Shown here: positions 13,355 to 63,535 of the stretch, in pieces
Layout: each line of letters opens with the position of its first letter
How positions within the stretch are numbered: the stretch's first letter is position 1
Origin: a bacterium
GTDB lineage: Bacteria; Bdellovibrionota_C; UBA2361; SZUA-149; JAEUWB01
Assembly: GCA_016786595.1 (NCBI GenBank)
Contig: JAEUWB010000035.1
Coordinates: 3,182-67,181, forward strand
Direction of reading: 5' to 3'
DNA length: 64,000 nt
The notes under the pieces: model-generated
What the model saw: only the letters and a program-made list of their open reading frames with translations
Database searches by the model: none
Told to the model about the DNA's origin: nothing
Made by a program: the position numbers and the translations under genes

Positions 13355-13356
13355 AA

Positions 13357-13431: not shown

Positions 13432-13630
13432 GCGACCTTTTTTGGCTACCTTTAGGTTACGAAACTCTGTCGCGTTCATTTTTATGATGTGATGTGCCGC
13501 AAGGTATAAATGTTTTTGCCTTGCACCCGCTGTGCGGGAGATTGCCGCGGCTACTAACGTAGCCTCGCAATGACAGTGAATGTCATTTTTATGATGTGAT
13601 GCAAAGCCAGTAGTCAATGGCATTACTGGC

Positions 13631-30232: not shown

Positions 30233-30332
30233 GGCAGTAAAAGGCTTATTTGTAAGTTCCTATAATAACTAGCTTTTTCTTATCATACGCTTTCTTTTGG
30301 CCTTGGGCCAGGCCTCTTTTTCTGCGCATCCA

Positions 30333-30423
30333 CAAGTAGGGGGGCTACTTTCTGGAGCAGAGGGGGGCAAGGTACGGGGTTACTTTTTGAGCTTTTAGGC
30401 AAGTAGGGGGGCTACTTTTTGTC
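30333..30423 (+). promoter_or_regulatory. Two direct repeats of CAAGTAGGGGGGCTACTTT(C/T)TG, 67 bp apart, with a related G6 element between them, upstream of the 30560 operon
   Basis: 30333-30355 and 30400-30423 are near-identical. 30361-30391 (AGGGGGGCAAGGTACGGGGTTACTTTTTGAG) is related. Confidence 0.4.
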
Positions 30424-36343: not shown

Positions 36344-36346
36344 CTT

Positions 36347-38836
36347 ATGGCTGACTACGTATCCGCCGGAACAGAAATGGCAGCAATGCTACAGACTGCA
36401 GGTTACTTCGCGCAATCTGAAATTCTTGCCCACTTAGGCTGGATGTTTGATCAAATTGGCGTAGTGATTCTACTAGGCTGCGCAATTTTTGCCATAGTCT
36501 CTTTTGTTGTTTACGGGCGTGCCGATGCGACAAAATGGTTCTTATTGGGACCACCGCTATTTATTTGGATCCTCAGTTCTCGTATCGAAGCGCATGGAAC
36601 TAAATGGCAGTTTGGTACCTTCGACCGCGGTACTCCTAATGCAGCAGAAGTCTTTCCTTCGATGGAAGGTAAACAGATTAAAGTCTCCTGGGCCTTCCAT
36701 CAGTGGGATTTATTTGTCTCTGAGCTTTCACGCCAACTGATCGACATGTTGACCAAGAGTAGCGAAAAGCCAGATTTGCTTTTTAATGTACGTCAGCAAG
36801 TTATGGATAAAGTGATGTCATCGCGTGTTGCCGATCCGGGATTACTTGAATTAATCCATCTAAGCATGCGCGGACAGTGCGCTGAGAATACGAATTTAAT
36901 TCAACGCATGGTCGATATCGAAACGCAAGATTTGTACAGGAAATATAAAAACCCAACCGACCGTGGCGGATTAAGTCCAGAGGAAGTAAGAGCGGCTGAG
37001 GCTTTAGAGCGCGATTGGAATGCGACCAAGTATCAGCTCGATCTTAAAAGCGGTTCGCGTGAAAATAAACTTAGCGAATCGGCGCGAAACTATGTCCGTG
37101 GGAACTTAACAATTATTGAGAAGACAGGAACTGCAAGTGCCAGTGCTCCAACGGATGTCTCCTATGATGAGTGCATTGGTATAACTGGAACAGAATTAGC
37201 GAAAATGAATTTGGATCTTGCCTGTTCAAACGGAGCTGCTTGCACTGAGGAGCCGAGTGAGTTTTACGATAATGTTTCCTGCGCTCATATCTGGAATTGG
37301 GTTTATCTCGGTGCTAAGCAAGAAGCTTGTGGTGCGATTACCGAAGCGATTGACGGGAGTTTGACCACTAACGCTCAGCAGCCAGAATTGCGTGTAGAAG
37401 TAGCTAAAGAACTTTTGAGTAAGTTGACTAACGGTTCTGGAGGCGAGGCCCCCTCAGCCTATTTGCCACAGATTGTTGCCGGTTATTTTATTCGGAATGA
37501 GCTGACTCGTGACCCAAGTCGCAACTGGGCAAGCACCTTGCACCAACACCTCAGTATTGACGGCATTGAATACGATTATAAAATCAAAACCGAGTACGAA
37601 AATAATGTGCCGGGGGACTTCAGTAAAAATGAGGATATCTATAAAGGTTCGCGACTTTTACGTGAAGCACTAGATTCTTATACGCATCGCTTTACACTTT
37701 ACAGCACGGCTATGGCGATGCCCTACTTTCAAGGTGTATTGCTTTATATACTCGCACTACTATTTCCGTTCTTCTGTATTTTTATTCTTGTTCCAGGTTT
37801 TGCCGGGGCATTCTTTATTTGGCCTGCGCTTTGGATGTGGGTGAAATTCTGGGATGTCGGGTTTGCAATGGTTAAGGTCCTCGATGAATTTCTCTGGGAA
37901 ATTATGCCACACGCAAATTACGATTGGCGCTCTGCGATGGAAGGCACCGGAGAGATTACGCGAGCACCGGTTGATGCCTTGCGTGTAGCTTTTGGTTATG
38001 ATCCGGGTTACAGCCTCTCAAATTACTACCACATTCTTTCTGTTGCGCTTGTGAGTATCCCTGTAGTTTTTGGACAGGCGATTCTTGGCGGCAAAGCCGC
38101 ACTAGTGTCTCCATTTTTAAATGGCGCTAAGGCGCTTGGGCAGAAGCGTGGCGCAGATGCAGACATGATGTACGGTTCATATCAGGCAGGTGTTATCGAT
38201 AAACTGCGTGAAAAATACGCGGTAAAAACAGTTAAAAACCGCCTTCGTAAAGGCCAAGTCGCTCGAACAGGGCGTAGGGAACTCCTTGGAATTAAAGAAC
38301 AAATTGATGCCACCGAAGCAAGTCAGTCGCAAAACCTGATTAATGGTGGGGTAGGGATGGTGCTAGGCGGAGTAGCTACAGTCGCTGGAGTTATCTGCTG
38401 TTTTACTGGAGTGGGTGCTGTGGTTGGAGCACCGTTAATCGGTGCAGGAGTAGGTGCGATGGCTAGTTCAGGAATGTCTACAGCAGGGGCAATGATTGAT
38501 AAGCGTCGTTTAGCAAATCAAGGGCGAGCTGGTTACACGAAATTAAATGCAAGAATGTTATACCAAGATTTACAGAAAGACCGCAGTTATCAGGCCTTTG
38601 ATATGTATCGTGCAGCAGTTACTGACCGTATTGAGTTTTGGAACTTGCCGGATGTTGACAGTCAATCAATAGCTAAGTTGGCAACTTTTGCGACAGAGAT
38701 GCAAGCAAAAACTGGCAGCATCGATACACATCAGATCGGGAAAATGCTGGGAGATACTGCTGAGCTAGCTGAAATTGGATCATGGTTTTCTGGCAAGGGT
38801 GGTGGACCTAAACCAGGTGGAGTTGGGACACCGTAA
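36347..38836 (+). CDS. Tandem paralog 2 of 5 (829 aa)
   Basis: AGTEMAAMLQTAGYFAQSEIL, TM, soluble region, PYFQGVLLYILALLFPFFCIFILVPGF...WPALWMWVKFWDVGFAMVKVLDEFLW, and a Gly/Ala-rich hydrophobic C-terminal segment (GGVGMVLGGVATVAGVICCFTGVGAVVGAPLIGAGVGAMA). Confidence 0.7.
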   Translation: MADYVSAGTEMAAMLQTAGYFAQSEILAHLGWMFDQIGVVILLGCAIFAIVSFVVYGRADATKWFLLGPPLFIWILSSRIEAHGTKWQFGTFDRGTPNAAEVFPSMEGKQIKVSWAFHQWDLFVSELSRQLIDMLTKSSEKPDLLFNVRQQVMDKVMSSRVADPGLLELIHLSMRGQCAENTNLIQRMVDIETQDLYRKYKNPTDRGGLSPEEVRAAEALERDWNATKYQLDLKSGSRENKLSESARNYVRGNLTIIEKTGTASASAPTDVSYDECIGITGTELAKMNLDLACSNGAACTEEPSEFYDNVSCAHIWNWVYLGAKQEACGAITEAIDGSLTTNAQQPELRVEVAKELLSKLTNGSGGEAPSAYLPQIVAGYFIRNELTRDPSRNWASTLHQHLSIDGIEYDYKIKTEYENNVPGDFSKNEDIYKGSRLLREALDSYTHRFTLYSTAMAMPYFQGVLLYILALLFPFFCIFILVPGFAGAFFIWPALWMWVKFWDVGFAMVKVLDEFLWEIMPHANYDWRSAMEGTGEITRAPVDALRVAFGYDPGYSLSNYYHILSVALVSIPVVFGQAILGGKAALVSPFLNGAKALGQKRGADADMMYGSYQAGVIDKLREKYAVKTVKNRLRKGQVARTGRRELLGIKEQIDATEASQSQNLINGGVGMVLGGVATVAGVICCFTGVGAVVGAPLIGAGVGAMASSGMSTAGAMIDKRRLANQGRAGYTKLNARMLYQDLQKDRSYQAFDMYRAAVTDRIEFWNLPDVDSQSIAKLATFATEMQAKTGSIDTHQIGKMLGDTAELAEIGSWFSGKGGGPKPGGVGTP

Positions 38837-38841
38837 CTTTT

Positions 38842-38983
38842 AGACTGAGTGCCAAAATAGCTGTTAATTAGGCTGTAGTTGAGGCACTCAGTCTAATCGT
38901 CCAGTAAACTGATTTTACTGGACAAAATAAATAAATACCCGTTGACGAAAGTTTCGTTAATCGAAAAAACTTTTGGCAACGGG
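38842..38983 (+). promoter_or_regulatory. Structured intergenic region splitting the paralog array: a 12 bp-stem hairpin (AGACTGAGTGCC/GGCACTCAGTCT), a second hairpin (CCAGTAAA...TTTACTGG), and a third (CCCGTTG...CAACGGG) containing a TTGACG -35-like element
   Basis: Read directly from the sequence. This is the only untranslated gap longer than 4 bp among the five paralogs, so it is a probable terminator plus internal promoter. Confidence 0.45.
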
Positions 38984-39009
38984 TTTAGGTAAAGATTTTT
39001 AAAAATAAT

Positions 39010-41145
39010 ATGCCACCAGAAACGGATGGAGTTGCAATTGGTGCTGTAGGGCACTTAATCGCTGCAGTGATGCAGACAGCTGGCATGTATGGCCAGTCTG
39101 AGATTCTTGCGACTATGCAGTTCTGGTTTCAACAAATGGGAGCGCTGATTTTTATTGCTTTCGCAGCAATGGCTCTCGGCCAACTTGTCATTTTTGGATC
39201 CTATCGCGGCGCGCTTTGGTTTGTGATCGCGCCTGTTCTCTTTCAATATGTAATTTTCTCTAAGCAAAATGTTGAGCTTACCAATTGGAAGTTTGGTAAC
39301 CGTTACGGTGAGAATGCCGGGCTAAATAGTGGAGAAGAGGAGTCAAAGGCTGCGATTGAGGAAAAGCTCAAGGAACTTAAGGTAGAGCTTCCAGAAAATG
39401 GAACAGCCTACTTATCGAATATATTTGTTGAATTTGACAAAGCAGTTTCTGCTATCGTGCAAAACACAGTAGCATTTCTAGTCGACCAAGATCGCCAAAG
39501 CGACCTTAAGTTTGTTGCCCGCATGAAATTATTCGAATCGCTCTTTCAAGAGCGACCCAATAGCGCAGGCTTGCATGAACTGATTATGACGGGTCTTGTC
39601 GGTGAGTGCGGGCAAGCGACAAATAATATGCAATCGCTCTCAAGTATTAAAATTCTAGAAGAGAAAGCCCGTGCTAAGGGTTCGAGTTTAGATCCGAAAA
39701 TTTTAGAACAGAAAAGCAAACTCGAAGAAGAACAAGCTCGCATATTTAGTGACCGCAAAGTGCAGTTTTCACGACCAGTTTGTCAATACTTGCAAGACTT
39801 ACAAGGTTGCTTCATTGGCAGCAATTTTCAGGAATTAAATTGCACACGTCCGGACTTGTACGGCTGCTATGAGCCACTATCCTACCTGCGCCCGAGTGAA
39901 CGCGGGAGTCAAGACTCGGCATCATGTAGCGACGTTTGGAAATATGTTTTCTTAGGTACATACCAGGAAGCAAAATATAAATTTGAAAAACTTGCTAAGG
40001 AAAACACCAAGCTTGGGTTGAAATGGGAAGACTTAGCAAAAGAAGTCTTGGAGAAAATTCCAGCCACTGGGGAGATTGATAATCCTGAAGTTTCTTCAGC
40101 AGCGTTTCAAGTGATTGCCGGACATTTACTACAGAACCATGTGCTGAGAACTCCTCACGGCGCATTAACTAGTGGCCTTTATGGTCGTCTGACTGAACAC
40201 TCGCAGATGACTAGTGAGATATTTGAATGGGGACAAGATGCTGAATCAATCGGGGATCAAGCATACTTATTAACGCTCAGTGGAATGCTACCTTATATTC
40301 AAGGTGTGGCCTTGTTTCTACTGTCGATTACTTTCCCATTCTTTGCGTTGTTCTTATTAATGCCAGGAAGAGTGAATACATTTTTCATGTGGCCTGCAAT
40401 GTGGATTTGGGTCAAGTCTTGGGATATTGGCTATGCACTTGTGCACATGATCGAGCAGCTGCTTTGGGAATTCATGCCGCATGTTGTACGTAGTGAACTT
40501 AGTGCTTACACAGCAGACTGGACGAATCCGAATTCAATTTGGACCACAATCTTTAGCAATGACCCAGTTTATTCGCCGAATTTATATTACTCCGTTTTAG
40601 GCGTATCGACTTTAGCAATTCCGGTGATCACGGCCCACCTGACCATGGCCAGTACTGACTTACTTGATGTATTTAACTCACGCCTGTCTTCATATGGCTC
40701 TCGTGTTCAAGCGCGTCAAAAGAACGTCGAGCGTAACCGCTTAGGAGGAACTCGAGATAATGAGTGGAAAATGGCTACTGGTGAAGCATGGGATAATGCA
40801 CGTGTCGCCTTAATGAAAAGTGAAGCTGGTAAAGCTAAGAAAAAACAAGGCGATGGTCTTTATGCCCGCTACGTCGATGCTAAAGCAAATCTTGCGCGTT
40901 TTGAGCGCAGTCACGATGATGACATTATTTGGCAAAAATCTTCAGCCAATATGCTGCGGGGTGCTCGTAAGATGAACTACAGCGCTAAATACACACAACA
41001 AGCAATCGATTCAGAAGCAGAATTGTATATCCAGGAAAAGGGATACGAGAGTGGCTTCTATGGATCAGAGAATTACGATACTACAGCGACGAATGCAGAT
41101 GCTTCAGTTTCGTCGGGTGGTGATAATGATGGTTCTGGAGAATAG
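39010..41145 (+). CDS. Tandem paralog 3 of 5 (711 aa)
   Basis: VGHLIAAVMQTAGMYGQSEIL, TM (IFIAFAAMALGQLVIFGSY), LPYIQGVALFLLSITFPFFALFLLMPGR...WPAMWIWVKSWDIGYALVHMIEQLLW. Confidence 0.7.
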   Translation: MPPETDGVAIGAVGHLIAAVMQTAGMYGQSEILATMQFWFQQMGALIFIAFAAMALGQLVIFGSYRGALWFVIAPVLFQYVIFSKQNVELTNWKFGNRYGENAGLNSGEEESKAAIEEKLKELKVELPENGTAYLSNIFVEFDKAVSAIVQNTVAFLVDQDRQSDLKFVARMKLFESLFQERPNSAGLHELIMTGLVGECGQATNNMQSLSSIKILEEKARAKGSSLDPKILEQKSKLEEEQARIFSDRKVQFSRPVCQYLQDLQGCFIGSNFQELNCTRPDLYGCYEPLSYLRPSERGSQDSASCSDVWKYVFLGTYQEAKYKFEKLAKENTKLGLKWEDLAKEVLEKIPATGEIDNPEVSSAAFQVIAGHLLQNHVLRTPHGALTSGLYGRLTEHSQMTSEIFEWGQDAESIGDQAYLLTLSGMLPYIQGVALFLLSITFPFFALFLLMPGRVNTFFMWPAMWIWVKSWDIGYALVHMIEQLLWEFMPHVVRSELSAYTADWTNPNSIWTTIFSNDPVYSPNLYYSVLGVSTLAIPVITAHLTMASTDLLDVFNSRLSSYGSRVQARQKNVERNRLGGTRDNEWKMATGEAWDNARVALMKSEAGKAKKKQGDGLYARYVDAKANLARFERSHDDDIIWQKSSANMLRGARKMNYSAKYTQQAIDSEAELYIQEKGYESGFYGSENYDTTATNADASVSSGGDNDGSGE

Positions 41146-41147
41146 GC

Positions 41148-43577
41148 ATGCCGGATCCAGTCAATAGCATCGAATCAGGATCTTTAGGAACAGCAGGTTC
41201 TCTGATTGCTGCCGCCTTGGAAACTGGCGGGCATTATCTCCAATCCGGAATAATTGATACTTTCTCGCAGGGACTTTCCAATGAAATTGGCGCCGTGCTC
41301 TATATCGCTGCAGCAATTGGCGCAATTATGACTGTTGCCCTTGGCGGCAGATATCTGCACGCAATGTGGTTTATCGCTGGGCCAATTCTTTTTCAAGCAG
41401 TTGTTTTTTCGCGCACCCCTTCAATTGGCCCATCCTTTTCGATGGGGCAGCGGCCAATTACCATGGACGAGAAAAAAGCTGCGTTGAATGAAGCGATTGA
41501 TAGCCCCTCGTTGGAACTGCTCAAGCAAGCGAAAGTTTCAGTGTTTTTTAGCACCTGGGTGCAAATTGTAGATAGTGTCAACCAGGGCTTGATTAAGGTT
41601 ATTTTTCAAATCAAGGATCAAGATCAATTACAATTCTTATTACAAAGCCAAATTTATGCAGCGATGCTCAATTCCCGCATTGAAGATCCTGCACTTCAAA
41701 CATTAACAAAGCTTGTCTTGCTCAAAGAATGTGCTCCCTATGTATCGGCCGCAAGAAGTGCTTATGACGATAACTTAACTACTAAAAATCAACTCGAAGC
41801 TCAGGGTTTAATGCGGGATTATGGGGCCTTCCCTGTGTCTTTAGATACGCACCCGTATTTAAGGCAGTTTATGGATTCACCTTTTGCAAAAAGCATGTTC
41901 GAGAATCCTAACGCTGAGTGTAAGGACCCACACATCGCAGGTAAAACAAATATAGCCTGCGCTGATATTTGGAATTTGGCATTTTGCTCACTGAAGCAAG
42001 AAGCGCGCAGAATGGTGCTAGATACGATGAGCTCAGTGCCGCAAGAAGTGACAGATGCATCTGTAATGCAAGCGATTTTAAAAAAGCTAAACCCTGACAC
42101 TGCGGCGCACACTCCTGCTGAGCAATTTAACATTGTCTATAATGCAGTTGCTGCACGGATGATGAATAAAGCATTGAAGGAATTGAATCCAGGCTCGCAG
42201 TATTTGCTTGCCGACCGGGATTTTAAGCTGGCCAATGATCAAGTTTTTTCGGTCAATAAAATTGTTTCCAAAATTAACGTTCCAGAACGCTATAAAGGTG
42301 TCGGTGATTTTCTTGAGGCGATGTTAGCTCTGCCCTATGTGCAAGGCATGCTTCTATTTTATTTGTCACTTGCCTTTCCATTTTTTGCTTTAGCTTTGAT
42401 CATTCCTGGTAGATATGAACTTTTCTTGGCTTGGATGGCTTTGTGGGCATGGGTTAAATCTTGGGATGTTGGCATGGCAGCAGTCATGCTCTTAGAGAAA
42501 ATTCTCTGGTCAACCTTGCCCGGCACTCACGCAATTGATGATCGTTTTGCCGAAGATCCGGGGCTAGTCTTTAAGCAGGTGCTAGGGTCAGATCCACTTT
42601 ACTCGATGAATACGCATTATCTAATTATTGCTGGAGCGATGGCCGCAGTGCCAGTGTTGACGGGATTTATCGTTAAACGCGGAGCCGGTGAAATTATTGA
42701 TGCTGTTGGCAATAGTATGGGTAAGTTTGCTGGCCGCATCGGTAACGCAATGCGCGACTACGAATCTTCGATTCACGCCCAGAACGAAGTTGCCTTGATG
42801 GCTAAGAAAAAAGAAGATGCCGTGATGGCAGCCCGTGGCGGAGCATTTGCCCGCGCCTCAGACGCTTACGAGAAAAGAATGGTCCTTAGTAGCGCAAGCC
42901 AAGCCTCGAAAGGTGGTATTGTTAATAATGTCTTGATTAATCCTAAGTCAGTGCTGCAGGGACAATCTACTAAGAGCGCCAATATTGCCGGTTCAATTAT
43001 GGACTTTGAAATGGCGAATAACGTCTATAAGGCAAGTATCTCTAAAGATGTCTTAAAGCATGCTTGGAGTGCGGTCTCTTACGGTTGGTATAACCACGAT
43101 TTCCAAGACGAGCCGGTCTGGGATTACAAACGTAAATTCGAATTGGCGAAACTAGGTCAATTTGAGCGTAAGGGATATTCTGAACCTTTTAAGTGGTTTA
43201 CCGATGTGGCTTATCAAGGGAAAGAAGTGCGAGGCGTAGGAGATATTTATGCACAAATTCCGCGAGAACTCACTGTGATGGCTGGGTTGTTCAGTAGTGG
43301 GAGTCCCGCGAGTTTCGTATTGCAGCCATTGTATACCCACCAAATTACTTCGACGATTGCGCACGAACAGCGCCCAGACCTACGCCGCGATGGTATGGAC
43401 TTGGCTAACGTTGTCCAACGCAGCACTTACTCAGGGACTCGTATTGATGGAGGGGATATCATGCTCGGTCGATCTGAAAATCGCATGACTAAGTATCAAG
43501 ATCGCGCTGAAAACGATCAGTATATCGCCTATCAGAGAAAATACTTAGGCACTGGTGGGGGAATTGAGGGAAGGTAA
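41148..43577 (+). CDS. Tandem paralog 4 of 5 (809 aa)
   Basis: GTAGSLIAAALETGGHYLQSGII, TM (VLYIAAAIGAIMTVALGG), LPYVQGMLLFYLSLAFPFFALALIIPGR...WMALWAWVKSWDVGMAAVMLLEKILW. Confidence 0.7.
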   Translation: MPDPVNSIESGSLGTAGSLIAAALETGGHYLQSGIIDTFSQGLSNEIGAVLYIAAAIGAIMTVALGGRYLHAMWFIAGPILFQAVVFSRTPSIGPSFSMGQRPITMDEKKAALNEAIDSPSLELLKQAKVSVFFSTWVQIVDSVNQGLIKVIFQIKDQDQLQFLLQSQIYAAMLNSRIEDPALQTLTKLVLLKECAPYVSAARSAYDDNLTTKNQLEAQGLMRDYGAFPVSLDTHPYLRQFMDSPFAKSMFENPNAECKDPHIAGKTNIACADIWNLAFCSLKQEARRMVLDTMSSVPQEVTDASVMQAILKKLNPDTAAHTPAEQFNIVYNAVAARMMNKALKELNPGSQYLLADRDFKLANDQVFSVNKIVSKINVPERYKGVGDFLEAMLALPYVQGMLLFYLSLAFPFFALALIIPGRYELFLAWMALWAWVKSWDVGMAAVMLLEKILWSTLPGTHAIDDRFAEDPGLVFKQVLGSDPLYSMNTHYLIIAGAMAAVPVLTGFIVKRGAGEIIDAVGNSMGKFAGRIGNAMRDYESSIHAQNEVALMAKKKEDAVMAARGGAFARASDAYEKRMVLSSASQASKGGIVNNVLINPKSVLQGQSTKSANIAGSIMDFEMANNVYKASISKDVLKHAWSAVSYGWYNHDFQDEPVWDYKRKFELAKLGQFERKGYSEPFKWFTDVAYQGKEVRGVGDIYAQIPRELTVMAGLFSSGSPASFVLQPLYTHQITSTIAHEQRPDLRRDGMDLANVVQRSTYSGTRIDGGDIMLGRSENRMTKYQDRAENDQYIAYQRKYLGTGGGIEGR

Positions 43578-43579
43578 GT

Positions 43580-46378
43580 ATGGCAGACCCTGTCTCAGTT
43601 GGCTCATCAGCATTAATGGTTGCTTCAGCTCTGGAGACTGCTGGTTATTATTACCAGTCCTATGTGCTTGATTCATTCAGCTCTACAATCATGGGGCCAC
43701 TTGGTGCGATTGCCTTTATTGTTGCAGGGATACTAGCAATTACTCAGTATGTTGTTGCCGGTGAATATAAGGCTTTTCTTTGGTTTGTAGTTGGTCCGGG
43801 GTTATTAGCAGCTGTTATTTTGACGCGCGAACCTACGACAGGCTCAAATTGGATTTTTGGCGATGAAGCTCGCGATCAAGCCGAAAAAAATGAAGTGATC
43901 CAATCAATCACAACAATCGATAATACAAATACCCCAAAAGTTTCTTCTTTCTTTGCTTGGTACAATAATTTAACGAGCGAACTTGTGCGCTCAATTGTTA
44001 CAAAACTAGTAGAGCAGCGTCAAAAAGCGGATATGACCTTTGTCGCGCGCACGCAGTTGCTACAAACTGCCGTGACTCAATCGATTTCAGATCCGCGCTT
44101 GAGTTCCATGATTCACGCAGGTCTTTGGGGACATTGTGGTGAGCTTGCTAAGGCCGCAAGGCAAACTCATCTTGCCAGCCTTGGTGATCGTGGCGCTGAT
44201 CCAAAGGGTGAGTATCAACGCTTTTATAGTCAAAATAAAGATCAAGAAATTGTTCCCTATAGTCAATACACAATTGATTATTTGGTTTCGCGTGCTGATC
44301 CTGCGAATCGTGCAAATGTGGCAAAAGAAGCGCAACGATCGTACTCCTGCCAAGAAATTTGGGATTTAGTTTACGAAGATCTCCTAGATCAATCAGCTCA
44401 AATCCAGACTCGCTTAACTGAGCGAGCCAAGTCCTTAGGTATCCCTGAGGAGAAATTTGAGGCAGATCTAACAAAAGCTCTAGGCGGCATGACTGCTGAC
44501 GATCCAAATCGTGGGCATGAACTGCATCAAGTATTAGCTAAGCATTTATTGAAAATTGAGTCGCACAAGGGATCAAGCGCACGCTATCCTCAAATGCTTG
44601 CGCGACAAGGTGGCGAAGCGGGCTCTGTTGCTAAGGTAGAACGCATGAAATGGTCGGGCCGCGAGCAAGAGCATAAAAGTAGGCTGGTCACAACTGCGAT
44701 GACGCTACCATACTATCAAGGGCTAATGCTTTACTTCTTGGCCTATACTTTTCCATTCTTTGCGATCCTTTTAGTGATCCCTGGTAAGTATACGGGCGCG
44801 TTAATGTGGTGCGTGCTCTGGTTGTGGGTGAAGAGCTGGGATATTGGCTATGCTGTTGTAATGATGCTTGATGATATTCTGTTTGGAATGTTTGCAGCTA
44901 ATCAAGATCCTACGGCATCGCAATTTTCCAATGATTTGGGCACCGTGATGGCCAGTCTTTCGGCATACGACCCGACGATGAATTTATCGACTTATTATTA
45001 TATTGTGGGCGTTTGCTTTTCTACTATTCCGGTGATCATGGGCTATATGGTGATGGGTGCGGCGAAAGGCGGAGCCCAGCTGATTGAAAACGGCGCAAAA
45101 ACATATGCGACTTCAATCGGAACTGGTGCTGGGTTATCGCAAAACCAAGGCCAGAACTTACAACTTCGCGCAGGAGAATTTAGAGCAGCAACGAATAATA
45201 TTTTTAACCGCTTAAGAAATGACAATGCGAAAACTCGTAATGACATGTCAGATATGGAATATCAGTCGCGCAAGGGTGGACTGCCAATAATGCCCAATAA
45301 CCGCGTTGATTCTATTAGTGGGCGCAGCATTCAGCAGTTGAAAGATGATTTTGTGTATTGGAGTGCTTGGGAGGGAGCGTTTGAAGGGTATAAAGGAAGC
45401 GGCCTTGTGCGTAAATTCGCAGGAGATTTAGGCATTGCTGGAAATATCGAGACTCCTGGGAAGGACGCGCAAAATGTGGATGTTGACAACGCATTAACTC
45501 CAATTACTTTTGCAACCCGCCGCTTAGCAGGAACAGCCTTACCAAAAGTAGCATTTGAGAAAGAATCTGCTTACAAGCATATGCAAGCTCGAGTTGGGCA
45601 AGTTATTGCCGAAGAAATGTTTGACTATTCACTTTCTTTTGCAGGCATGGCTCATGCGCAAGACAGACGCGTTTATCGAGGCTTTGAATTGCCATCGGCA
45701 TATGACGATCCGGGCGAAAGTATTTACGCCGCTAGAATGGTTAAAGACCAACGGTTAATTGAGAGCGCTAAGGCAATTAGTAACACGGGATTCAATCTTA
45801 CTCGCGGTGGCGTGCAGTTTATCGAGAACTACGGTAAAGGCAAAAAAATGCGAGGTAGCGTAGATAAGGCGGGTAAAAAAGGTGGGGGCTTCGGAGGTAA
45901 AACTAATGGCACCCCTCTCATCGGTGGACAGCTTGAGCCAATTTTTATTACATTAGGCGTAGCTGATCAGCTAGAAATGGGAGATTTCGGCTACACTCCA
46001 AACCAACACATGGACATCGCACTGGATCAACAAACTTTCCATGACAATGCAATTGGCAGTGGTCCAGGAGGACGTGCTCCGGAAATGCCTGGTTATGCAG
46101 GAGTTGTTGAGAAAGTGGTCGGATCAAACCTACAAGATTGGAACCAGCGTTCTTATGGGACAATGGATTTAAGTGAAGCTTCAATCGCGGAGCGTAAGCA
46201 CGTAACTGCACGCTTAGAGCAGGCAATCGACGATGCTCGGCTTGGTAACCGCGAGGCTGATATAGCTAGAAACTTGTTAGCAGATCGCTACACTTCGATG
46301 GCGGATTTGAAACAATCCTTAGATCGCCTACTTGAGGAAAATCAAAAACTCGCTAAGACGGAAAAATCCGGCAATTAA
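43580..46378 (+). CDS. Tandem paralog 5 of 5 (932 aa)
   Basis: SALMVASALETAGYYYQSYVL, TM (AIAFIVAGILAITQYVVAGEY), LPYYQGLMLYFLAYTFPFFAILLVIPGK...WCVLWLWVKSWDIGYAVVMMLDDILF, long C-terminal soluble domain. Confidence 0.7.
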   Translation: MADPVSVGSSALMVASALETAGYYYQSYVLDSFSSTIMGPLGAIAFIVAGILAITQYVVAGEYKAFLWFVVGPGLLAAVILTREPTTGSNWIFGDEARDQAEKNEVIQSITTIDNTNTPKVSSFFAWYNNLTSELVRSIVTKLVEQRQKADMTFVARTQLLQTAVTQSISDPRLSSMIHAGLWGHCGELAKAARQTHLASLGDRGADPKGEYQRFYSQNKDQEIVPYSQYTIDYLVSRADPANRANVAKEAQRSYSCQEIWDLVYEDLLDQSAQIQTRLTERAKSLGIPEEKFEADLTKALGGMTADDPNRGHELHQVLAKHLLKIESHKGSSARYPQMLARQGGEAGSVAKVERMKWSGREQEHKSRLVTTAMTLPYYQGLMLYFLAYTFPFFAILLVIPGKYTGALMWCVLWLWVKSWDIGYAVVMMLDDILFGMFAANQDPTASQFSNDLGTVMASLSAYDPTMNLSTYYYIVGVCFSTIPVIMGYMVMGAAKGGAQLIENGAKTYATSIGTGAGLSQNQGQNLQLRAGEFRAATNNIFNRLRNDNAKTRNDMSDMEYQSRKGGLPIMPNNRVDSISGRSIQQLKDDFVYWSAWEGAFEGYKGSGLVRKFAGDLGIAGNIETPGKDAQNVDVDNALTPITFATRRLAGTALPKVAFEKESAYKHMQARVGQVIAEEMFDYSLSFAGMAHAQDRRVYRGFELPSAYDDPGESIYAARMVKDQRLIESAKAISNTGFNLTRGGVQFIENYGKGKKMRGSVDKAGKKGGGFGGKTNGTPLIGGQLEPIFITLGVADQLEMGDFGYTPNQHMDIALDQQTFHDNAIGSGPGGRAPEMPGYAGVVEKVVGSNLQDWNQRSYGTMDLSEASIAERKHVTARLEQAIDDARLGNREADIARNLLADRYTSMADLKQSLDRLLEENQKLAKTEKSGN

Positions 46379-52001: not shown

Positions 52002-52066
52002 CTATTCTGAATACTTGATCCGCGTTAAGTTAATCGTTAAATATTAAAACATAGATAATTTTAAGC

Positions 52067-53053
52067 ATGAAGTCAGTAACATTTTCATTTCGCACGGAAA
52101 CAGCGCTTTTTTCTTTGGCCTTTGGCGGGCTGCCACTGCGTGAGCAGGCGTTTAAGGGGGCAATGCGCTACTGGTATAGGGCCTTCTGTGCTTCTGCTTA
52201 TAATCTTAAATCTCTTGCGCATAAAGAGTCGCAAATTTTTGGCTCTAGTGGGAGACAAGGCCAGGCCACGAGGGGAGTGCGTCTCCAACTAATCCGACCA
52301 AACGTCCTGCCCCAAGAAATCTCGCCACAGCCACACAAGGAACGGGTTAAACCTTTGCGCGCCTTGCCAGCGCGGCATGAATTTCAACTTGTGTTATCAC
52401 AACCACACTCGATGCGTGACGAGGATTTTCTAAAAGCCTGTGCTGCACTTTGGCTTGCTGCTACAATCGGTGGATTTGGTCGGCGTTCGCGACGTGGAGC
52501 GGGAGGAGTGCGGGTTATTTCAATCTCAGGTTCGTATCAACTGAACTTGCCAGTAATCCATCAGCAGTGGTCGAGTGACGAACTTAAGAATGCATTAAGT
52601 GCCGGTTTAATTGAAGCCAGAAAAATATTATTCGAAGGCGGAAAAAATATTGAAACTCCCAATCAGTTGCGCGGCGATATCCCACAACTGGTTAGCGGTA
52701 AAGATGGTTCGCATATTATTATTTCTGACCTCGGCCCTAGTAGCGAAGCCGAAGCGCGCGCTAAGCTCATGCTTAAGTTACGGCAATTTAAAAACCAAAT
52801 TTTTGGTTTGCCGTTGAAGATCAATCAGGGAGAGAATGGAGCGCAGGCAGAACGAAAAGAGCGCTTCAGTCGAGAAGGTTCCAAGCGTTATGCATCACCA
52901 GTATGGATCAGGCTAATTGAGTTAAAGAGCGGGTGGACAATGATTGTCACACTCTTATTGCCGCTGCCCCGAGTTAAAACGGCCAATCGAGATAAGCTAG
53001 ATGAATTTTTAGCTGCGCTCAAGCAGAACCGTAAAGAGGTTGCAATTCCATGA
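52067..53053 (+). CDS. cmr1: Type III CRISPR RAMP protein, Cmr1-like
   Basis: N-terminal TETALFSLAFGGLPLREQAFKGAMRYWYRAF matches the Cmr1 LFxGG...RxxSxKGALRFWFRA signature. QIFGSS block. Gly-rich loop GGFGRRSRRGAGGVRV. First gene of a four-gene operon with overlapping stops and starts. Confidence 0.6.
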   Translation: MKSVTFSFRTETALFSLAFGGLPLREQAFKGAMRYWYRAFCASAYNLKSLAHKESQIFGSSGRQGQATRGVRLQLIRPNVLPQEISPQPHKERVKPLRALPARHEFQLVLSQPHSMRDEDFLKACAALWLAATIGGFGRRSRRGAGGVRVISISGSYQLNLPVIHQQWSSDELKNALSAGLIEARKILFEGGKNIETPNQLRGDIPQLVSGKDGSHIIISDLGPSSEAEARAKLMLKLRQFKNQIFGLPLKINQGENGAQAERKERFSREGSKRYASPVWIRLIELKSGWTMIVTLLLPLPRVKTANRDKLDEFLAALKQNRKEVAIP

Positions 53054-53844
53054 GCGAGAAAACAGTTTTTATTCATGCCTTAACGGGCATTGGCTCGACC
53101 GGTGAGAAAACTGCAAGCCTGACTTATCTACCACGCGCGGCCATGGAAGCGGCCATAGACACGGATTTAAAAATTCCAGTCATCAGAACCTCAACCTTAA
53201 TGCGGGCGTTGCGGCATGCTAAAATTACAATCAATCCTGAGAATATTTCTTATGACCCGAGCTTATTGCTTTTACCGGTGCGCACCCCCGCGGGACTTTT
53301 TGCCTGGATCACTTGTCCGGCAGCGCTCGGGAAAATGAAATTACTCGGGTCGAATAGCAATCAAACGATCCAAGGCTTTACTTTTAATCCTGAAGTTCAA
53401 GCTTACGTTACACGGTCGTGTCAAATTTTACTCGATCGGGAATTAATAATTGAAGAATATTTCTTACGTTCAAAATACAGTAATGAACTTGATGTGATCG
53501 CGCTTGAACTTGCAAAAAATATTTTTTCTGACCCAGGATATGAATGGTGGCAAAAGAAACTCCAAATGGATCTCGTTGTCGTCAGTAACCAAACCTTTGC
53601 TGCAATGCTGCAAACGGCCCTGGAAATACGCGCACGTGTTGCCGGCAATTCCGCTCAAATCGCAAGGAAGACTCCCTACCTCTACGAAGAGCTATTTCCA
53701 GCAGAAGCGGTGCTAATTACCGCTTTAGCTGCAGAAAACTTGCCAACAGAGACAAAATTAATTGAACTCGGGAATAATCTTAGCACCGGACGAGGGCTAT
53801 CTCGACTAATTATGAGAGCAAGTAGTTATGACCTTGGAGCATAA
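53050..53844 (+). CDS. cmr4: Type III CRISPR backbone RAMP, Cmr4
   Basis: Start overlaps the cmr1 stop (ATGA). Cmr4 signature blocks: LLLPVRTPAGLFAWITCPAALGKMK (thumb region: L.PVRS..G.FAyvTSP.vL.R), ARKTPYLYEELFPAEAVLITAL (gaLfyeE.lPaesvfy), and terminal Gly-rich loop ELGNNLSTGRGLSRL. The N-terminal IPVIRTSTLMRALRHA corresponds to the IPGSSLKGVLR block but is divergent. Confidence 0.65.
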   Translation: MSEKTVFIHALTGIGSTGEKTASLTYLPRAAMEAAIDTDLKIPVIRTSTLMRALRHAKITINPENISYDPSLLLLPVRTPAGLFAWITCPAALGKMKLLGSNSNQTIQGFTFNPEVQAYVTRSCQILLDRELIIEEYFLRSKYSNELDVIALELAKNIFSDPGYEWWQKKLQMDLVVVSNQTFAAMLQTALEIRARVAGNSAQIARKTPYLYEELFPAEAVLITALAAENLPTETKLIELGNNLSTGRGLSRLIMRASSYDLGA

Positions 53845-54259
53845 AACAGCTGATCGCGGAACTGCGGTAGTTGCTGCGGCAGACAATTTATTTTCTGCTG
53901 CACTAAAGCGCCGAAAATCTGGCGCAACTAAAGCGCTGATTTATCGTATGCCGGTTGTGATTGCACGCCATGGTATCGGACAAGCTATTGCTGAATTAGA
54001 GCAGAGTCCAGTAGGTAAAATGGTTCGACATTATTTAGGACTTTGGATCTGTGAACAAGCAGGAAGCGATGCTCAAAAGCTTAAAAATTTTCGCACTGCA
54101 GCTTGGGAAAGCGATTCGCAGTTGGTAATGTCAATCACTAGCGCAGCGCTCAAATTTTTTGCCCTGCAAGCTCAGCAATTCACGCAAGTGCAGACTGATT
54201 TGCAGGAGAATCTGGAAAGTCCCGAACAGACAGCCACAATTGATCAACTAAACGAGTAA
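53828..54259 (+). CDS. cmr5: Small alpha-helical subunit, Cmr5-like (143 aa)
   Basis: Overlaps the cmr4 end. All-helical, right size, and MPVVIARHGIGQAIAEL resembles the Cmr5 aPVmIlsnGLlQTLAFL block. Weakest of the four assignments. Confidence 0.45.
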   Translation: MTLEHKTADRGTAVVAAADNLFSAALKRRKSGATKALIYRMPVVIARHGIGQAIAELEQSPVGKMVRHYLGLWICEQAGSDAQKLKNFRTAAWESDSQLVMSITSAALKFFALQAQQFTQVQTDLQENLESPEQTATIDQLNE

Positions 54260-54280
54260 CACTGAACGAGTAAGACTGAG

Positions 54281-55498
54281 ATGAGCGAAAAAACAGGCAA
54301 GATCATTAGCTATAATGCTGCCAACAAAATGGGAGAAATCGCTTTTGCCGGTTTTGATGTCCCTGCGCGGTTCTATCTTTCTGTTGTTACGAACCCGACA
54401 CCTGAACCAGTTAAGGGTGACCAAGTGAGTTTCGCAGCAGCAGATCCGGTAAAAAATAAAAAAGGAAAATACTCGCCTGTAACTGCAAGTACGGTAACTA
54501 TTACTGAGCGTTCTCCCGTACGGGAAGAGGAGAAAAAATTTGATGCAACTGCTCAAAGTTTTCGCACGACACTGCAGCGTGGAGCTCGTAATGACCGCTC
54601 CAGAAACAACCGCACAAAATCAGCTTCAAAAATTTCGCAGCAAGCTCAAGAATTACGTGTGATCCCTAAGCGACAACTTTCGCTACGCATTGCCCATGAT
54701 GCAACTCCACTGCCGCGTGATATGCGTCGACGTATGGTCAATTGGGGCACTGCTAATCCAGCTTTTTTGCTAGCAAAGGGCATTTCCTGGAAGCATGCTG
54801 AAAATAATGAATTTGAGCGTAATCGCGATCATTTTCGGCATTTTATGCACAAAACATTTCTGCCGGTTTATCAAAATGCAGTGAAGAATCTTATCCCTTT
54901 AGAGGCACTCAAAACTCGGCAGATCCAAATTTATAAATCCCTACGAACTCAGGGCTATTTACTCGATCATCGTGTTTTAAAATTATCTACACCACTAGTG
55001 CTTGGGCAGAATGCTTCTAGTTTATTACGGCAAATCAGTGTCGTTACTGACCATCTTTATGGTTATCCTGTGGTGCATGGGTCAATGATCAAGGGAACTT
55101 TTAAAGAATATCTACAAAACTTACTGGCTGGAGATCCTGGACTTGCAGTAGCTAGAGATTTTGAACAAATTTTTGGGACAACAGAGGCACCAGGCCGGGT
55201 GATCTTCTTTGATTCTTTTCCTACGCGGGCTTTGCCTGATCTTGGATTTGAAACTCTGCAGGATTCATTCCCTGCTTGGTATCATGGCCGGGGTTCTGCA
55301 GCTGATACTCAGTTACCTGAACGAGACTATCTATCTGTGATTAAACCTGGAGCTGAATATACATTTAGTTTTGCGTTGAGGCCTGGCTCAGAAGAGTCGC
55401 TACTTGGCACGGTAGGGAACTTATTGCAGCAAATGCTTGTTGAGTTTGGGCTGGGATCAAGAACCGCCCTAGGATATGGGCGATTCAGGGTTAACTAA
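54281..55498 (+). CDS. cmr6: Cmr6-type RAMP with an N-terminal cold-shock domain (CSD) fusion
   Basis: aa 1-70 KTGKIISYNAANKMGEIAFAGFDVPARFYLSVV...KGDQVSFAA follows the CspA pattern (GxVKWFNxxKGFGFI...VFVHxSxI...GxxVxF). The C-terminal half has Cmr6 blocks PVVHGSMIKGTFKEYL (pyIPGSSlKGvlR), EQIFGTTEAPGRVIFFDSFP (lFGs...G.v.F.DA.P), DSFPAWYHG (tPHy.pYY) and the terminal Gly-rich loop EFGLGSRTALGYGRFRV. Confidence 0.6.
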   Translation: MSEKTGKIISYNAANKMGEIAFAGFDVPARFYLSVVTNPTPEPVKGDQVSFAAADPVKNKKGKYSPVTASTVTITERSPVREEEKKFDATAQSFRTTLQRGARNDRSRNNRTKSASKISQQAQELRVIPKRQLSLRIAHDATPLPRDMRRRMVNWGTANPAFLLAKGISWKHAENNEFERNRDHFRHFMHKTFLPVYQNAVKNLIPLEALKTRQIQIYKSLRTQGYLLDHRVLKLSTPLVLGQNASSLLRQISVVTDHLYGYPVVHGSMIKGTFKEYLQNLLAGDPGLAVARDFEQIFGTTEAPGRVIFFDSFPTRALPDLGFETLQDSFPAWYHGRGSAADTQLPERDYLSVIKPGAEYTFSFALRPGSEESLLGTVGNLLQQMLVEFGLGSRTALGYGRFRVN

Positions 55499-55584
55499 GG
55501 AAGCTCTAATAAGTCCGATCTTGGCTCAACCTCGAACTTAATCATAGCTTCCTTAGAGCATTCATGATTCTATCCGTTCCAGTG

Positions 55585-56088
55585 TTAGCAAGTCGAACTG
55601 TTATAGCACTTTGTCGGATTTGGAATGCGGTAGCACTTTCCAGTTTTTCCTACAGCAAACACGGTAACTGAGCCTGTATTTGCTTTTGCTTTTGACGCCA
55701 TTGATTTTGTGCTTTGGCAATTTGCGCCCGGTGTGCCGCAACCATAGTAGCGGAATTTATACAATGCACCTGCAGGAGTATAAGGTCCCCAACTGGCGAT
55801 TCGATTGCCTTTATTATCAACTATTTTCCCAGAAAATGTTACTGCGCAACCACGCTTAGCAATTAGTGATCCGCTTTTGTGGCGAGGATTATTCCGTGGA
55901 ATATGCGCTGATTGCTTTTTGCCTTTGTAAATCAAACAACCCGGTAAGGAAGCAACCGATTTACAGACATCCGAAAAAGCGCTGGTTGAGCGAGTTAGAT
56001 CTTCTAATTCGTCAGCAATTGAATCTAACTCATCTGCCAAAGCCGGTAAGGGCATGATCAATGTTAAAAGTAATAAATATTTTTTCAT
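55585..56088 (-). CDS. Secreted Cys-rich small protein, paralog 1 (167 aa)
   Basis: Signal peptide MKKYLLLLTLIMPLPALA, acidic propeptide-like DELDSIADELEDLTRS, and 8 Cys including the C-terminal TGKCYRIPNPTKCYNSSTC. Confidence 0.55.
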   Translation of the reverse strand: MKKYLLLLTLIMPLPALADELDSIADELEDLTRSTSAFSDVCKSVASLPGCLIYKGKKQSAHIPRNNPRHKSGSLIAKRGCAVTFSGKIVDNKGNRIASWGPYTPAGALYKFRYYGCGTPGANCQSTKSMASKAKANTGSVTVFAVGKTGKCYRIPNPTKCYNSSTC

Positions 56089-56119: not shown

Positions 56120-56671
56120 TTAGCAACCTGAGCTGTTGTAGCATTTGCGTGCATCAGGGATTTCTACGCAGCGTTTATTTTTGCCAACGGCGTAAATTGT
56201 TCCTGAGCCTGTGTTTTGGACTGCGGTGTTATAGATTGATCGAGCACGGCGGCAACATCCGCTACAGCTTTGTACTCCTTGTGTGCAGTAAAATCTGTAG
56301 GCATAAGTTTTGCCAGAGTTATTATAGCGCACAAGGCTATTCACGACATTGCCCTTACTGTCGACGAAATTCATTTTATTGCCGTAACGTTTTGTGCAAC
56401 CACGAAAGCCAATCCAAGTGTTGCCCTTAGCTCTTGGATTGCTGTTGCCGATATGTCCTGAGATCTTAGTTTTGTATACAGCGCATTTGCCTTCGCTCTT
56501 GATGTTCACGATTGTTGAGCAGACATCTTGAAGTGCCTTAGTCGAATGATTGATTTCGGTGTTGTTAGTCGAAACTTCATTGATCGCATCCACTAAATCT
56601 TCTAAATCATCTGCAAATGAAAATGATGGGATTAGTAGAGTGATAAGGGAGAGAATAATTTTATTTCTCAT
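56120..56671 (-). CDS. Secreted Cys-rich small protein, paralog 2 (183 aa)
   Basis: Signal peptide MRNKIILSLITLLIPSFSFA, acidic DDLEDLVDAINEV, and C-terminal KNKRCVEIPDARKCYNSSGC parallel to paralog 1. Confidence 0.55.
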   Translation of the reverse strand: MRNKIILSLITLLIPSFSFADDLEDLVDAINEVSTNNTEINHSTKALQDVCSTIVNIKSEGKCAVYKTKISGHIGNSNPRAKGNTWIGFRGCTKRYGNKMNFVDSKGNVVNSLVRYNNSGKTYAYRFYCTQGVQSCSGCCRRARSIYNTAVQNTGSGTIYAVGKNKRCVEIPDARKCYNSSGC

Positions 56672-63000: not shown

Positions 63001-63180
63001 ACTTTTGTCCGTTGATATAGTTTCTTTGTTTATCTAAGTTAAAGAATTTAAAGCAGAGAAACTAGGATATTCTTCGCGAGATAACAAGGGGTGCAAAATA
63101 AGCACTTAACATCGGGTATCTTGTTGAAAACTTTACTCATTCGGCAATCCGTTTTAGATTGCTGAGAAGTGGCAAATGTG

Positions 63181-63254
63181 CGCCCTTAGCTCAGCTGGAT
63201 AGAGCAACTGGCTTCGAACCAGTAGGTCGGGAGTTCGAATCTCTCAGGGCGCGA
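63181..63254 (+). tRNA. tRNA-Arg (anticodon UCG)
   Basis: Cloverleaf folded by hand: acceptor GCGCCCT/AGGGCGC, D-arm GCTC-AGCTGGATA-GAGC, anticodon arm ACTGG-CTTCGAA-CCAGT (UCG), T-arm GGGAG-TTCGAAT-CTCTC, discriminator G. No encoded CCA. Confidence 0.85.
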
Positions 63255-63535
63255 TGGCTAGAGAAGTGCAGAGGATTTGCAACTAGAGGATTCGAACCGG
63301 GCGGCCGTTAGGCTGCCGAATCAGTAGGGTGAATCTCTCAGGGCGCGATGGCTAGAGAAGTGCAGAGGATTTGCAACTAGAGGATTCGAACCGGGCAGCC
63401 GTTAGGCTGCCGAATCAGTAGGGTGAATCTCTCAGGGTGCGGTGGCTAGAGAAGTGCAGAGGATTTGCAACTAGAGGATTCGAACCGGGCGGCCGTTAGG
63501 CTGCCGAATCAGTAGGGTGAATCTCTCAGGGCGCG
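63255..63535 (+). repeat. Three tandem 93-94 bp direct repeats, each ending with the last 17 nt of the adjacent tRNA-Arg (GAATCTCTCAGGGCGCG)
   Basis: Units 63255-63347, 63348-63441, 63442-63535, differing only by a few substitutions and one 1-bp indel. Begins exactly at the tRNA 3-prime end. Confidence 0.85.

Follow-up and report, generated by a model that had tools for sequence, protein, structure and literature searches.

Can a Cas7/Cas11 filament assemble on RNA that lacks a repeat-derived tag? This question is raised by a cassette of four co-directional open reading frames (ORFs) at positions 52067-55498 (+ strand) of the DNA analyzed here, a 64-kb (64,000 nt) window of the 86.8-kb bacterial contig JAEUWB010000035.1, which belongs to a fragmentary metagenome-assembled genome (MAG). 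The cassette encodes homologs of Cmr1, Cmr4, Cmr5 and Cmr6, subunits of the type III-B (Cmr) CRISPR effector, the last of them fused to a cold-shock domain (CSD). Our profile, structure and context analyses support an operon of cmr1, cmr4, cmr5 and CSD-cmr6 without cas10, cmr3 or a CRISPR array, in agreement with a preliminary description of the locus, made from the DNA letters alone, which had held that it does not conform to a standard subtype. The cassette is placed among the array-less or exapted CRISPR derivatives, outside any current subtype. Of the explanations offered in that description, the one with the best support is a filament, reduced or repurposed, that binds RNA, as five deeply diverged loci share the architecture without cas10 or cmr3 beside cmr4. 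The reading that we favor, and to which we give an even chance, is that of a domesticated, vertically inherited, array-independent filament derived from a reduced type III-B (Cmr) effector, which would bind, sequester or regulate RNA.

All four ORFs and every motif previously quoted from their translations were recovered, and profile hidden Markov models from Pfam, PADLOC and TIGRFAM/NCBIfam assigned each of the four products to the RAMP/Cmr families, as had been proposed, while the CSD was confirmed by structure prediction. Cmr1 matched PADLOC models at 1.4e-18 and 9.1e-18 (residues 22-312), TIGR01894 at 4.2e-8, above its cutoff, and the Pfam RAMPs family at 1.2e-10; its top PDB match was a chain named 'Cmr1-MntA' (9z7q_I, 2.8e-13). 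Cmr4 was recognized by PADLOC (4.9e-20) and by TIGR02580 (2.6e-18), the latter in a match that begins at residue 69 and, at 66.9 bits, stays below the 87-bit equivalog cutoff. An hhalign comparison with a profile of 20 Cmr4 sequences nevertheless covered residues 2-256 (Prob 99.9%, E 3e-34), and the top PDB match was the Cmr4 chain 9arw_C (4.2e-14). Cmr5 matched PF09701 (2.8e-5; 24.7 bits against a gathering cutoff of 21) and the PADLOC Cmr5 model (9.6e-5). For Cmr6, TIGR01898 scored above its cutoff (3.7e-19, residues 233-402), the PADLOC Cmr6 model reached 1.2e-23 (residues 205-404), and PDB matches comprised the Cmr6 chains 9l7c_I and 3x1l_H at 1.8e-18 as well as 9arw_H, a 'CSD domain-containing protein Cmr6', at 3.1e-9. 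In the NCBI annotation the first and last genes are already named Cmr1 (MBL7662200.1) and Cmr6, and the Cmr4 homolog is a 'hypothetical protein' (JNK13_05555). The genes had been described as four overlapping ones, which applies to cmr1/cmr4 (4 nt, ATGA) and cmr4/cmr5 (17 nt), but not to cmr5 and cmr6, which are separated by 21 nt.

Across the 64 kb, no CRISPR-like array was found by Tandem Repeats Finder (TRF), a spaced-direct-repeat search or Rfam. Likewise, no cas10, cmr3, cas6, cas1 or cas2 was found among the window ORFs, when the large or unannotated ones were scanned singly against Pfam and PADLOC and 35 ORFs were scanned in bulk against PADLOC and NCBIfam; here the individual scans weigh most, while the bulk PADLOC result holds among the matches listed. 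Neither PF09700 nor PADLOC Cmr3 gave a match in the window. The cas-free span around the cassette amounts to 52 kb upstream and 8.5 kb downstream, so that the absence of cas10, cmr3, cas6, adaptation genes and an array, previously claimed for at least 5 kb on either side, extends beyond that distance, and the adjacent cas10/cmr3 pair that would indicate a split locus was not found within the window.

The same cassette occurs in relatives. A HMMER search of 1.84 billion cluster representatives yielded 587 Cmr4 relatives, the nearest of them 31% identical, and five family loci were compared (the window, L004, L005, L006 and L007). L005, a 231-kb contig (ENA ERZ25071427), carries the complete set in the order cmr1 (325 aa), cmr4 (284 aa), cmr5 (175 aa) and CSD-cmr6 (424 aa), flanked on one side by brkB, pnp, rlmN, ndk, sucCD and mdh, on the other by a Phd/YefM gene, a glycosyltransferase gene, dnaJ and clpB. 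The roughly 9-10 kb to each side of this cassette contain no cas gene, no array was found in 20 kb and no Rfam RNA adjoins it; in addition, Rfam and spaced-repeat searches of the window cassette and of the 479-bp gap after cmr6 in L005 revealed no guide RNA gene. The contigs L004, L006 and L007, which are 2.4-3.3 kb long and each end inside cmr6, have cmr4, cmr5 and CSD-cmr6 with no cmr1 upstream of cmr4, and their Cmr4 homologs are P0065, P0118 and P0144. In L006 and L007 the cassette comes right after the menaquinone-pathway gene menC, which overlaps cmr4 in L007, and in L004 it follows a gene for a membrane protein that, from its translation only, resembles UbiA/MenA (men-gene stretches: L004 1-582, L006 1-528, L007 1-999). 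Thus the gene directly upstream of cmr4 in the five loci is cmr1, menC or MenA-like, and never cas10 or cmr3. The genes in the cmr5 position of L004, L005, L006 and L007 also match Cmr5, and between the window and L005 the full-length orthologs share 32% identity for Cmr1 (E 3e-38) and 30% for Cmr6 (E 5e-60).

The family is very rare. When the Cmr4-like and Cmr6-like proteins were used in word-index searches, almost nothing but the queries themselves came back, and a profile search added a few relatives on short contigs. No further member was detected in GTDB species genomes, JGI metagenomes and IMG/VR, which were queried with a few degenerate peptide patterns of limited sensitivity, and in a tblastn search of 72,556 PLSDB plasmids the matches were confined to the RAMP portion of canonical Cmr6. 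Since the Logan contig L001 does not differ from the window (100% identity), it is uninformative on selection. Two candidates for Cas10-less sisters, P0004 (L003) and P0152 (L012), were rejected because they lie directly after cmr3 and are canonical; the P0152 locus has a Cas10 fragment upstream. P0153 (L009-L011) was not counted as a family member, as it has a canonical Cmr4 N-terminus and no CSD on Cmr6. The P0153 locus is arranged differently: in L009 1-3306, and also in L010 and L011, a C-terminal cmr6 fragment, cmr1, cmr4, cmr5 and an N-terminal cmr6 fragment follow one another with cmr1 directly before cmr4, which could mean that the module has been duplicated or that Cas10-distal Cmr cassettes exist in a second form.

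All five family members have a degenerate catalytic loop in Cmr4. In the window protein, two MAFFT alignments and hhalign line up Tyr26 (SLTYLPR), which is followed by a five-residue insertion, with the Asp that is nearly invariant in the 'IDLP' motif, whereas D69, the equivalent of P. furiosus D86, is conserved. Both positions are informative, since the D26A exchange in P. furiosus Cmr4 abolishes target slicing and D86 is a residue of the filament interface (PMC4333402). Moreover, Gly15 takes the place of the conserved His of the G-rich loop and Met50 that of the Lys of 'SSLKG'. The preliminary description had listed hallmark sequence blocks for Cmr4; the quoted motifs are indeed present, but the protein is not of the hallmark type throughout, as its N-terminal catalytic loop is degenerate, with Tyr in the catalytic-Asp column. 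The catalytic column holds Asp in P0005, P0065 and P0144, and Asn in P0118; the L005 ortholog is one of those with Asp. From these alignments, the window Cmr4 appears able to polymerize but not to slice, and, as Tyr replaces the catalytic Asp, the complex of this genome is predicted to bind RNA but to leave it uncut. The homologs P0065, P0118 and P0144 additionally bear long low-complexity tails rich in K, P, E and A at both termini, which are absent from canonical Cmr4, from the window protein and from L005.

These data bear on a conventional explanation, namely that cas10 and cmr3, perhaps together with an array, are encoded elsewhere in the genome and that an ordinary III-B complex is assembled with the four subunits. 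The closest relatives of Cmr4, Cmr1 and Cmr6 do belong to canonical III-B systems, P0004 lies beside cmr3, and the 9arw complex combines a Cmr3 chain with CSD-Cmr6; the MAG is also fragmentary, and 64 kb of the 86.8-kb contig are covered. However, all five loci independently lack a cas10-cmr3 pair directly upstream of cmr4. In the window and L005, the start and stop codons at which cmr1 and cmr4 meet overlap or lie 4 nt apart, which has the appearance of a clean loss of cas10-cmr3 and not of an assembly break, and the catalytic loop, G-rich loop and SSLKG motif of Cmr4 are degenerate, unlike in working III-B complexes. We consequently regard such a split locus as quite improbable.

The genomic setting would fit long vertical inheritance. 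The window is an ordinary stretch of core chromosome (ccmC, galU, metH, cysS, transketolase, kup, and the E1, E2 and E3 genes of pyruvate dehydrogenase, PDH), and the GC content is flat across the cassette. Between L006 and L007, MenC is 38% identical, Cmr4 34% and Cmr6 40%, and the men-gene synteny is kept at about 35-40% protein identity among loci whose GC content spans 38% to 61%. Since the cassette diverges like the neighboring menC and sits among core genes, it is read as vertically co-inherited over a long time, and neither as a mobile module of adaptive immunity nor as a remnant in decay nor as a defense island that moves fast. The same observations speak to the idea of an array-less innate defense system, in which a RAMP filament would sense phage RNA through the CSD and trigger an effector encoded elsewhere, comparable to HRAMP, ARAMP and the Streptomyces I-E/STAND derivative. 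Array-less CRISPR derivatives have been interpreted as defense systems (PMC8730458), a Cmr1-MntA fusion exists in a related canonical system (PDB 9z7q), and in L005 a Phd/YefM antitoxin gene (13147-13461) lies 480 bp downstream and a DUF6036 nucleotidyltransferase gene (3893-4339) 4.7 kb upstream of the cassette. Against this, in none of the five loci is the cassette linked to a gene for a nuclease, a STAND or CARF protein or another effector, the neighbors are core metabolic genes, and the preserved men synteny is unlike that of defense islands with their fast turnover, so that a defensive role of this kind seems to us hardly more than an outside chance. The proximity of DUF6036 to the L005 cassette, viewed beside the nucleotidyltransferase (MntA) fused to Cmr1 in 9z7q, is perhaps a coincidence.

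According to the predicted structure, the N-terminal 78 amino acids of Cmr6 are a cold-shock domain. The AlphaFold2 (AF2) model of this part, computed from a two-sequence alignment, has five strands with a predicted local distance difference test score (pLDDT) of 92.1 and a predicted template modeling score (pTM) of 0.78, and a Foldseek search of the PDB with this model returned cold-shock domains as top matches, the first being E. coli CspA (1mjc, E 1.8e-4, TM 0.69/0.79). A single-sequence AF2 model of full-length Cmr6 reached a pLDDT of only 34 and was discarded. The assignment rests on the predicted structure because tests that used the sequence only were weak: the domain has no Pfam match, its PDB profile matches are all CSD proteins but with E values of 0.5-1.2, and hhalign against CspA and CspB, with a Thermotoga Csp among the comparison sequences, gave an E value of 0.0045 and Prob 7.7%. 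Cold-shock domains bind nucleic acids through the aromatic motifs RNP1 (K-G-F-G-F-I) and RNP2 (V-F-V-H-F). In the registers given by hhalign and HMMER, which derive from weak alignments, Y11, F31 and Y32 are invariant in the five loci, the two RNP1 Phe positions are not kept as aromatic residues and read M/F/Q and E/Y/Q/K, and a further invariant loop, P-x-K-N-K-x-G-K, is found. The CSD, whose mean column identity over the five loci is 71%, is better conserved than any other part of the family; the RAMP parts are 25-40% identical. The linker that follows is basic, with 25% K+R and a net charge of +10 over residues 79-150, and its counterpart in L005 and L006 reaches 35-37% K+R.

Conservation of this kind also bears on the suggestion that the locus is a decayed III-B remnant without current function. 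Cas10, Cmr3 and the catalytic Asp have been lost, the Cmr4 score falls under the TIGRFAM cutoff, and the sequence is an orphan whose nearest relative is distant. However, the four ORFs are intact and translationally coupled, a check for signs of decay revealed no frameshifts, the same architecture is maintained in five loci at 60-75% sequence divergence, and the filament-interface residues are kept. Because the cassette has been retained in these diverged loci together with a highly conserved CSD, decay is very improbable and this option can be considered largely refuted.

In canonical Cmr complexes, the Cas10-Cmr3 foot carries the signaling and DNase activities. This foot (Cmr2, that is Cas10, with Cmr3) binds the 5' tag of the CRISPR RNA (crRNA), Cmr4 and Cmr5 form two filaments, and Cmr6 and Cmr1 cap the crRNA's 3' region and take hold of the target (PMC4215187). 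Cmr3, which had been introduced in the preliminary description as the binder of the crRNA 3' end, is thus the subunit that recognizes the 5' tag, and it is Cmr1 and Cmr6 whose action lies at the 3' region. The P. furiosus complex binds crRNA only if all of Cmr2, Cmr3, Cmr4 and Cmr5 are present (PMC4215187). Since Cmr2 and Cmr3 are missing from the cassette, a tagged crRNA cannot be loaded in the canonical manner and another route of RNA loading is needed. What has been kept would be the filament and the head (the Cmr4 backbone, the Cmr5 filament, and Cmr6 with Cmr1), and what has been lost would be the Cas10-Cmr3 foot, Cas6, adaptation and the array. We propose loading driven by the CSD because the most conserved element of the family is a fold that binds single-stranded RNA (ssRNA), joined to a basic tail on Cmr6: the CSD and the basic linker probably capture ssRNA in place of tag recognition, the captured RNA may then nucleate polymerization of Cmr4 and Cmr5, and Cmr1, where present, would cap the filament. 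In the window genome, Tyr26 would turn the product into a non-cleaving, RNA-coating complex. Tentatively, therefore, the cassette may encode a vertically inherited, guide-free bacterial ribonucleoprotein of CRISPR origin without Cas10 and Cas5, in which the CSD on Cmr6 loads cellular or invading ssRNA into a Cmr4/Cmr5 filament; we consider this specific version possible, with the balance somewhat against it. Subject to the same reservation, it might be a domesticated machine that coats, regulates or protects RNA and would constitute a previously undescribed class of type III-B exaptation.

Several observations weigh against the favored reading of an array-independent, domesticated filament. 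The absence of an array, cas6 and cas10-cmr3 covers 64 kb of the 86.8-kb contig, so that the rest of the genome could supply them, and in the short contigs L004, L006 and L007 the absence of cas10 refers only to the position immediately upstream of cmr4. The case for vertical inheritance is built on five loci and one neighboring gene, menC. It is common for type III loci to rely on Cas6 and crRNAs supplied in trans, and III-G loci, array-less as they are, are thought to use crRNA in trans as well (PMC12669027). The retained Cmr5, which lines the target strand in canonical complexes, hints that a guide:target duplex may still form. Furthermore, Asp persists in the catalytic column of three of the five Cmr4 homologs; loss of slicing is therefore not general in the family, which may still cut RNA. 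These points also lend some weight to a guide-dependent but Cas10-independent effector, which would receive crRNAs from an array (and Cas6) elsewhere in the genome and bind complementary transcripts or, in the relatives that keep the Asp, slice them. Such a complex would amount to a minimal type III module for RNA interference or silencing, and the retention of Cmr1 and Cmr6, which contact the crRNA 3' region, beside Cmr5 on the target strand fits this idea. In contrast, the reader of the 5' tag, Cmr3 (Cas5), is absent and the P. furiosus complex binds no crRNA without Cmr2 and Cmr3 (PMC4215187), no array was found in the 64 kb of the window or the 20 kb of L005, and a core chromosomal context with neighbor-like divergence is atypical for defense loci. 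A guide-dependent effector is thus unlikely, though the least so of the alternatives considered here.

Table 1. Positions of the cassette genes, domains and adjoining features in the 64-kb window.
Feature	Position	Strand	Basis or remark
Presumed promoter region	52002..52066	+	65-bp AT-rich spacer between divergent kup and cmr1-like genes; role from position only
cmr1-like gene, 328 aa	52067..53053	+	Profiles, PDB match, L005 ortholog
cmr4-like backbone gene, 264 aa, predicted non-slicing	53050..53844	+	PADLOC, TIGR02580, hhalign, PDB
Tyr26 codon in catalytic-Asp column (P. furiosus D26)	53125..53127	+	Two MAFFT alignments and hhalign
cmr5-like (Cas11 small subunit) gene, 143 aa	53828..54259	+	PF09701, PADLOC
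CSD-cmr6 gene, 405 aa	54281..55498	+	TIGR01898, PADLOC; structure prediction for CSD
Cold-shock domain, Cmr6 residues 1-78	54281..54514	+	AF2, Foldseek
Basic low-complexity linker and Cmr6 N-terminal extension, residues 79-232	54515..54976	+	Composition; no family match
Cmr6 RAMP domain, residues 233-405	54977..55498	+	TIGR01898, PADLOC Cmr6, PDB matches
Possible terminator hairpin	55495..55556	.	Inverted repeat, 16-nt arms and 30-nt loop, straddling the cmr6 stop between convergent genes

A consensus sigma-70 scan found no site in the presumed promoter region, and a terminator consensus scan did not call the inverted repeat at the 3' end of cmr6, so that its putative terminator role follows from its form and position. 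Of the flanking genes named in the preliminary description, kup and the PDH genes were confirmed, and the two Cys-rich proteins are present without a family match. These two proteins (55585-56088 and 56120-56671, - strand; 167 and 183 aa), which have signal peptides, are encoded adjacently, immediately downstream of and convergent with the cassette; by eye they are apparent paralogs, both ending in KCYNSS(T/G)C. A plasmid or integrative and conjugative element as the setting of the cassette, considered in view of five TraG_N-like genes upstream and a tRNA gene with repeats downstream, was rejected, as the core genes kup, PDH, cysS, metH and tkt surround it. The TraG_N-like genes (33578-46378, + strand) are five successive large paralogs of 921, 829, 711, 809 and 932 aa, each with a weak TraG_N-like region, preceded by genes for a thioredoxin-like protein and a 622-aa protein without a family; a tandem expansion of a membrane protein of the conjugation or mating-pair-stabilization type is unusual amid core chromosomal genes. 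At the tRNA-Arg(TCG) gene (63179-63254), the final ~17 nt are reiterated in a 94-nt unit present in 3.2 copies with 97-100% identity (63237-63535, + strand), and these repeats resemble stacked attachment sites from serial integration and excision at the tRNA. Elsewhere in the window, positions 2069-6736 (+ strand) encode a 1555-aa AddA/AddB-like protein with a PD-(D/E)XK nuclease (residues 364-645) and a UvrD-type helicase (residues 700-1500) and many PADLOC GajB/UvrD matches, and positions 11132-11899 (- strand) encode a Fic-like protein that matches the PADLOC candidate defense families PDC-S04 (2.4e-18) and SoFic (1.4e-15). Between divergent genes at 30316-30421 there are two 39-nt elements, 77% identical and 67 nt apart, each with an AAGTAG-GGGGG-CTACTT hairpin, which are not CRISPR-like.

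To our knowledge, all classified type III subtypes except III-E keep Cas10 in some form, and a Cas5 that anchors the 5' handle of the crRNA is kept in the known multisubunit class 1 effectors. The relevance of the cassette for CRISPR evolution is high, tempered by the small number of loci and by a possible supply of the missing parts in trans. Should it depend on a guide, no smaller multisubunit type III effector that binds RNA would be known; predicted to be naturally slicing-dead in the window genome, it would merit attention as a compact, programmable binder of RNA. In the literature searched, whose coverage left most subscription journals outside, we found no description of a Cmr module that consists of Cmr1, Cmr4, Cmr5 and Cmr6 only or that lacks Cas10 (Cmr2), and nothing relevant on CSD-Cmr6, on Cmr1-MntA or under the PDB codes of the solved complex.

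The closest structural counterparts are III-B systems with CSD-Cmr6 (PDB 9arw, 9z7q, 9z7v and 9z7x), which provided the best or near-best PDB matches for the window Cmr4, Cmr1 and Cmr6. The 9arw-type complex comprises Cmr3 (chain B), Cmr4, the 'CSD domain-containing protein Cmr6' and 'Cmr1-MntA' and shows the same CSD-Cmr6 fusion as the window. Because this fusion is found in canonical systems of the 9arw type, it predates the loss of Cas10 and Cmr3. However, the 9arw-type complex has Cmr3 and, judging from the chain lettering, presumably Cas10, whereas the window cassette has neither; moreover, Tyr stands in the catalytic-Asp column of the window Cmr4, the window Cmr1 is without an MntA fusion and no array lies nearby. 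Of the features that define III-B, the cassette thus possesses the Cmr4 backbone (below the TIGR02580 cutoff), Cmr5, Cmr6 and Cmr1, while it lacks Cas10, Cmr3, the catalytic Asp of Cmr4 and a CRISPR array at the locus.

Subtype III-E has its own array and crRNA processing and a partner, the protease TPR-CHAT. Among the nine type III subtypes of the 2025 classification, III-E (Cas7-11/gRAMP) resembles the cassette as a type III derivative without cas10 (PMC12669027), but it has III-D as its source and consists of one protein in which multiple Cas7 units are fused, whereas the subunits encoded in the window are separate, of III-B type and not accompanied by an array. Similarly, III-G loci are devoid of an adaptation module and an array, and the catalytic Asp of their Cas7 is not conserved (PMC12669027); in contrast to the cassette they keep Cas10, with its HD nuclease, and Cas5, and are predicted to target DNA with crRNAs supplied in trans. 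Guide-free RNA binding by array-less derivatives of type III has precedents in type IV-B, HRAMP and ARAMP (PMC8730458; PMC12669027). HRAMP and ARAMP, array-less type III derivatives with nucleases (PMC12669027) and archaeal Cas5+Cas7 modules (PMC8730458), share with the cassette an array-less module of type III ancestry. They are, however, of haloarchaeal and Asgard origin, combine Cas5 and Cas7 homologs, typically with HNH or PD-(D/E)xK nucleases (ARAMP also with Cas1), and have RAMPs too diverged to be placed in a subtype, whereas the cassette is bacterial, has no Cas5 and no linked nuclease, and its subunits are readily recognized as III-B.

The closest analogue for the proposed mechanism is type IV-B, likewise a reduced type III derivative without an array, adaptation module or nuclease. 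Heterogeneous small RNAs are bound there on a Cas7/Cas11 filament without an array, which makes it the nearest mechanistic precedent (PMC8730458). The two differ in composition and location: IV-B consists of Csf1 (a substitute for the large subunit), Csf2 (Cas7), Csf3 (Cas5) and Cas11, shows a CysH-like link and is carried on plasmids or integrative and conjugative elements, while the window cassette has no Cas5 or large subunit, resides in the core chromosome and carries a CSD. In line with this difference, the only match to a type IV model was that of typeIV_Cas7 to the C-terminus of Cmr6 (4.8e-5, against 1.2e-23 for the Cmr6 model). If the cassette is guide-independent, it would thus represent a new CRISPR exaptation beside type IV-B, HRAMP/ARAMP and the CRISPR-associated transposons (CAST), and its core chromosomal context would point to a function on cellular RNA rather than to defense.

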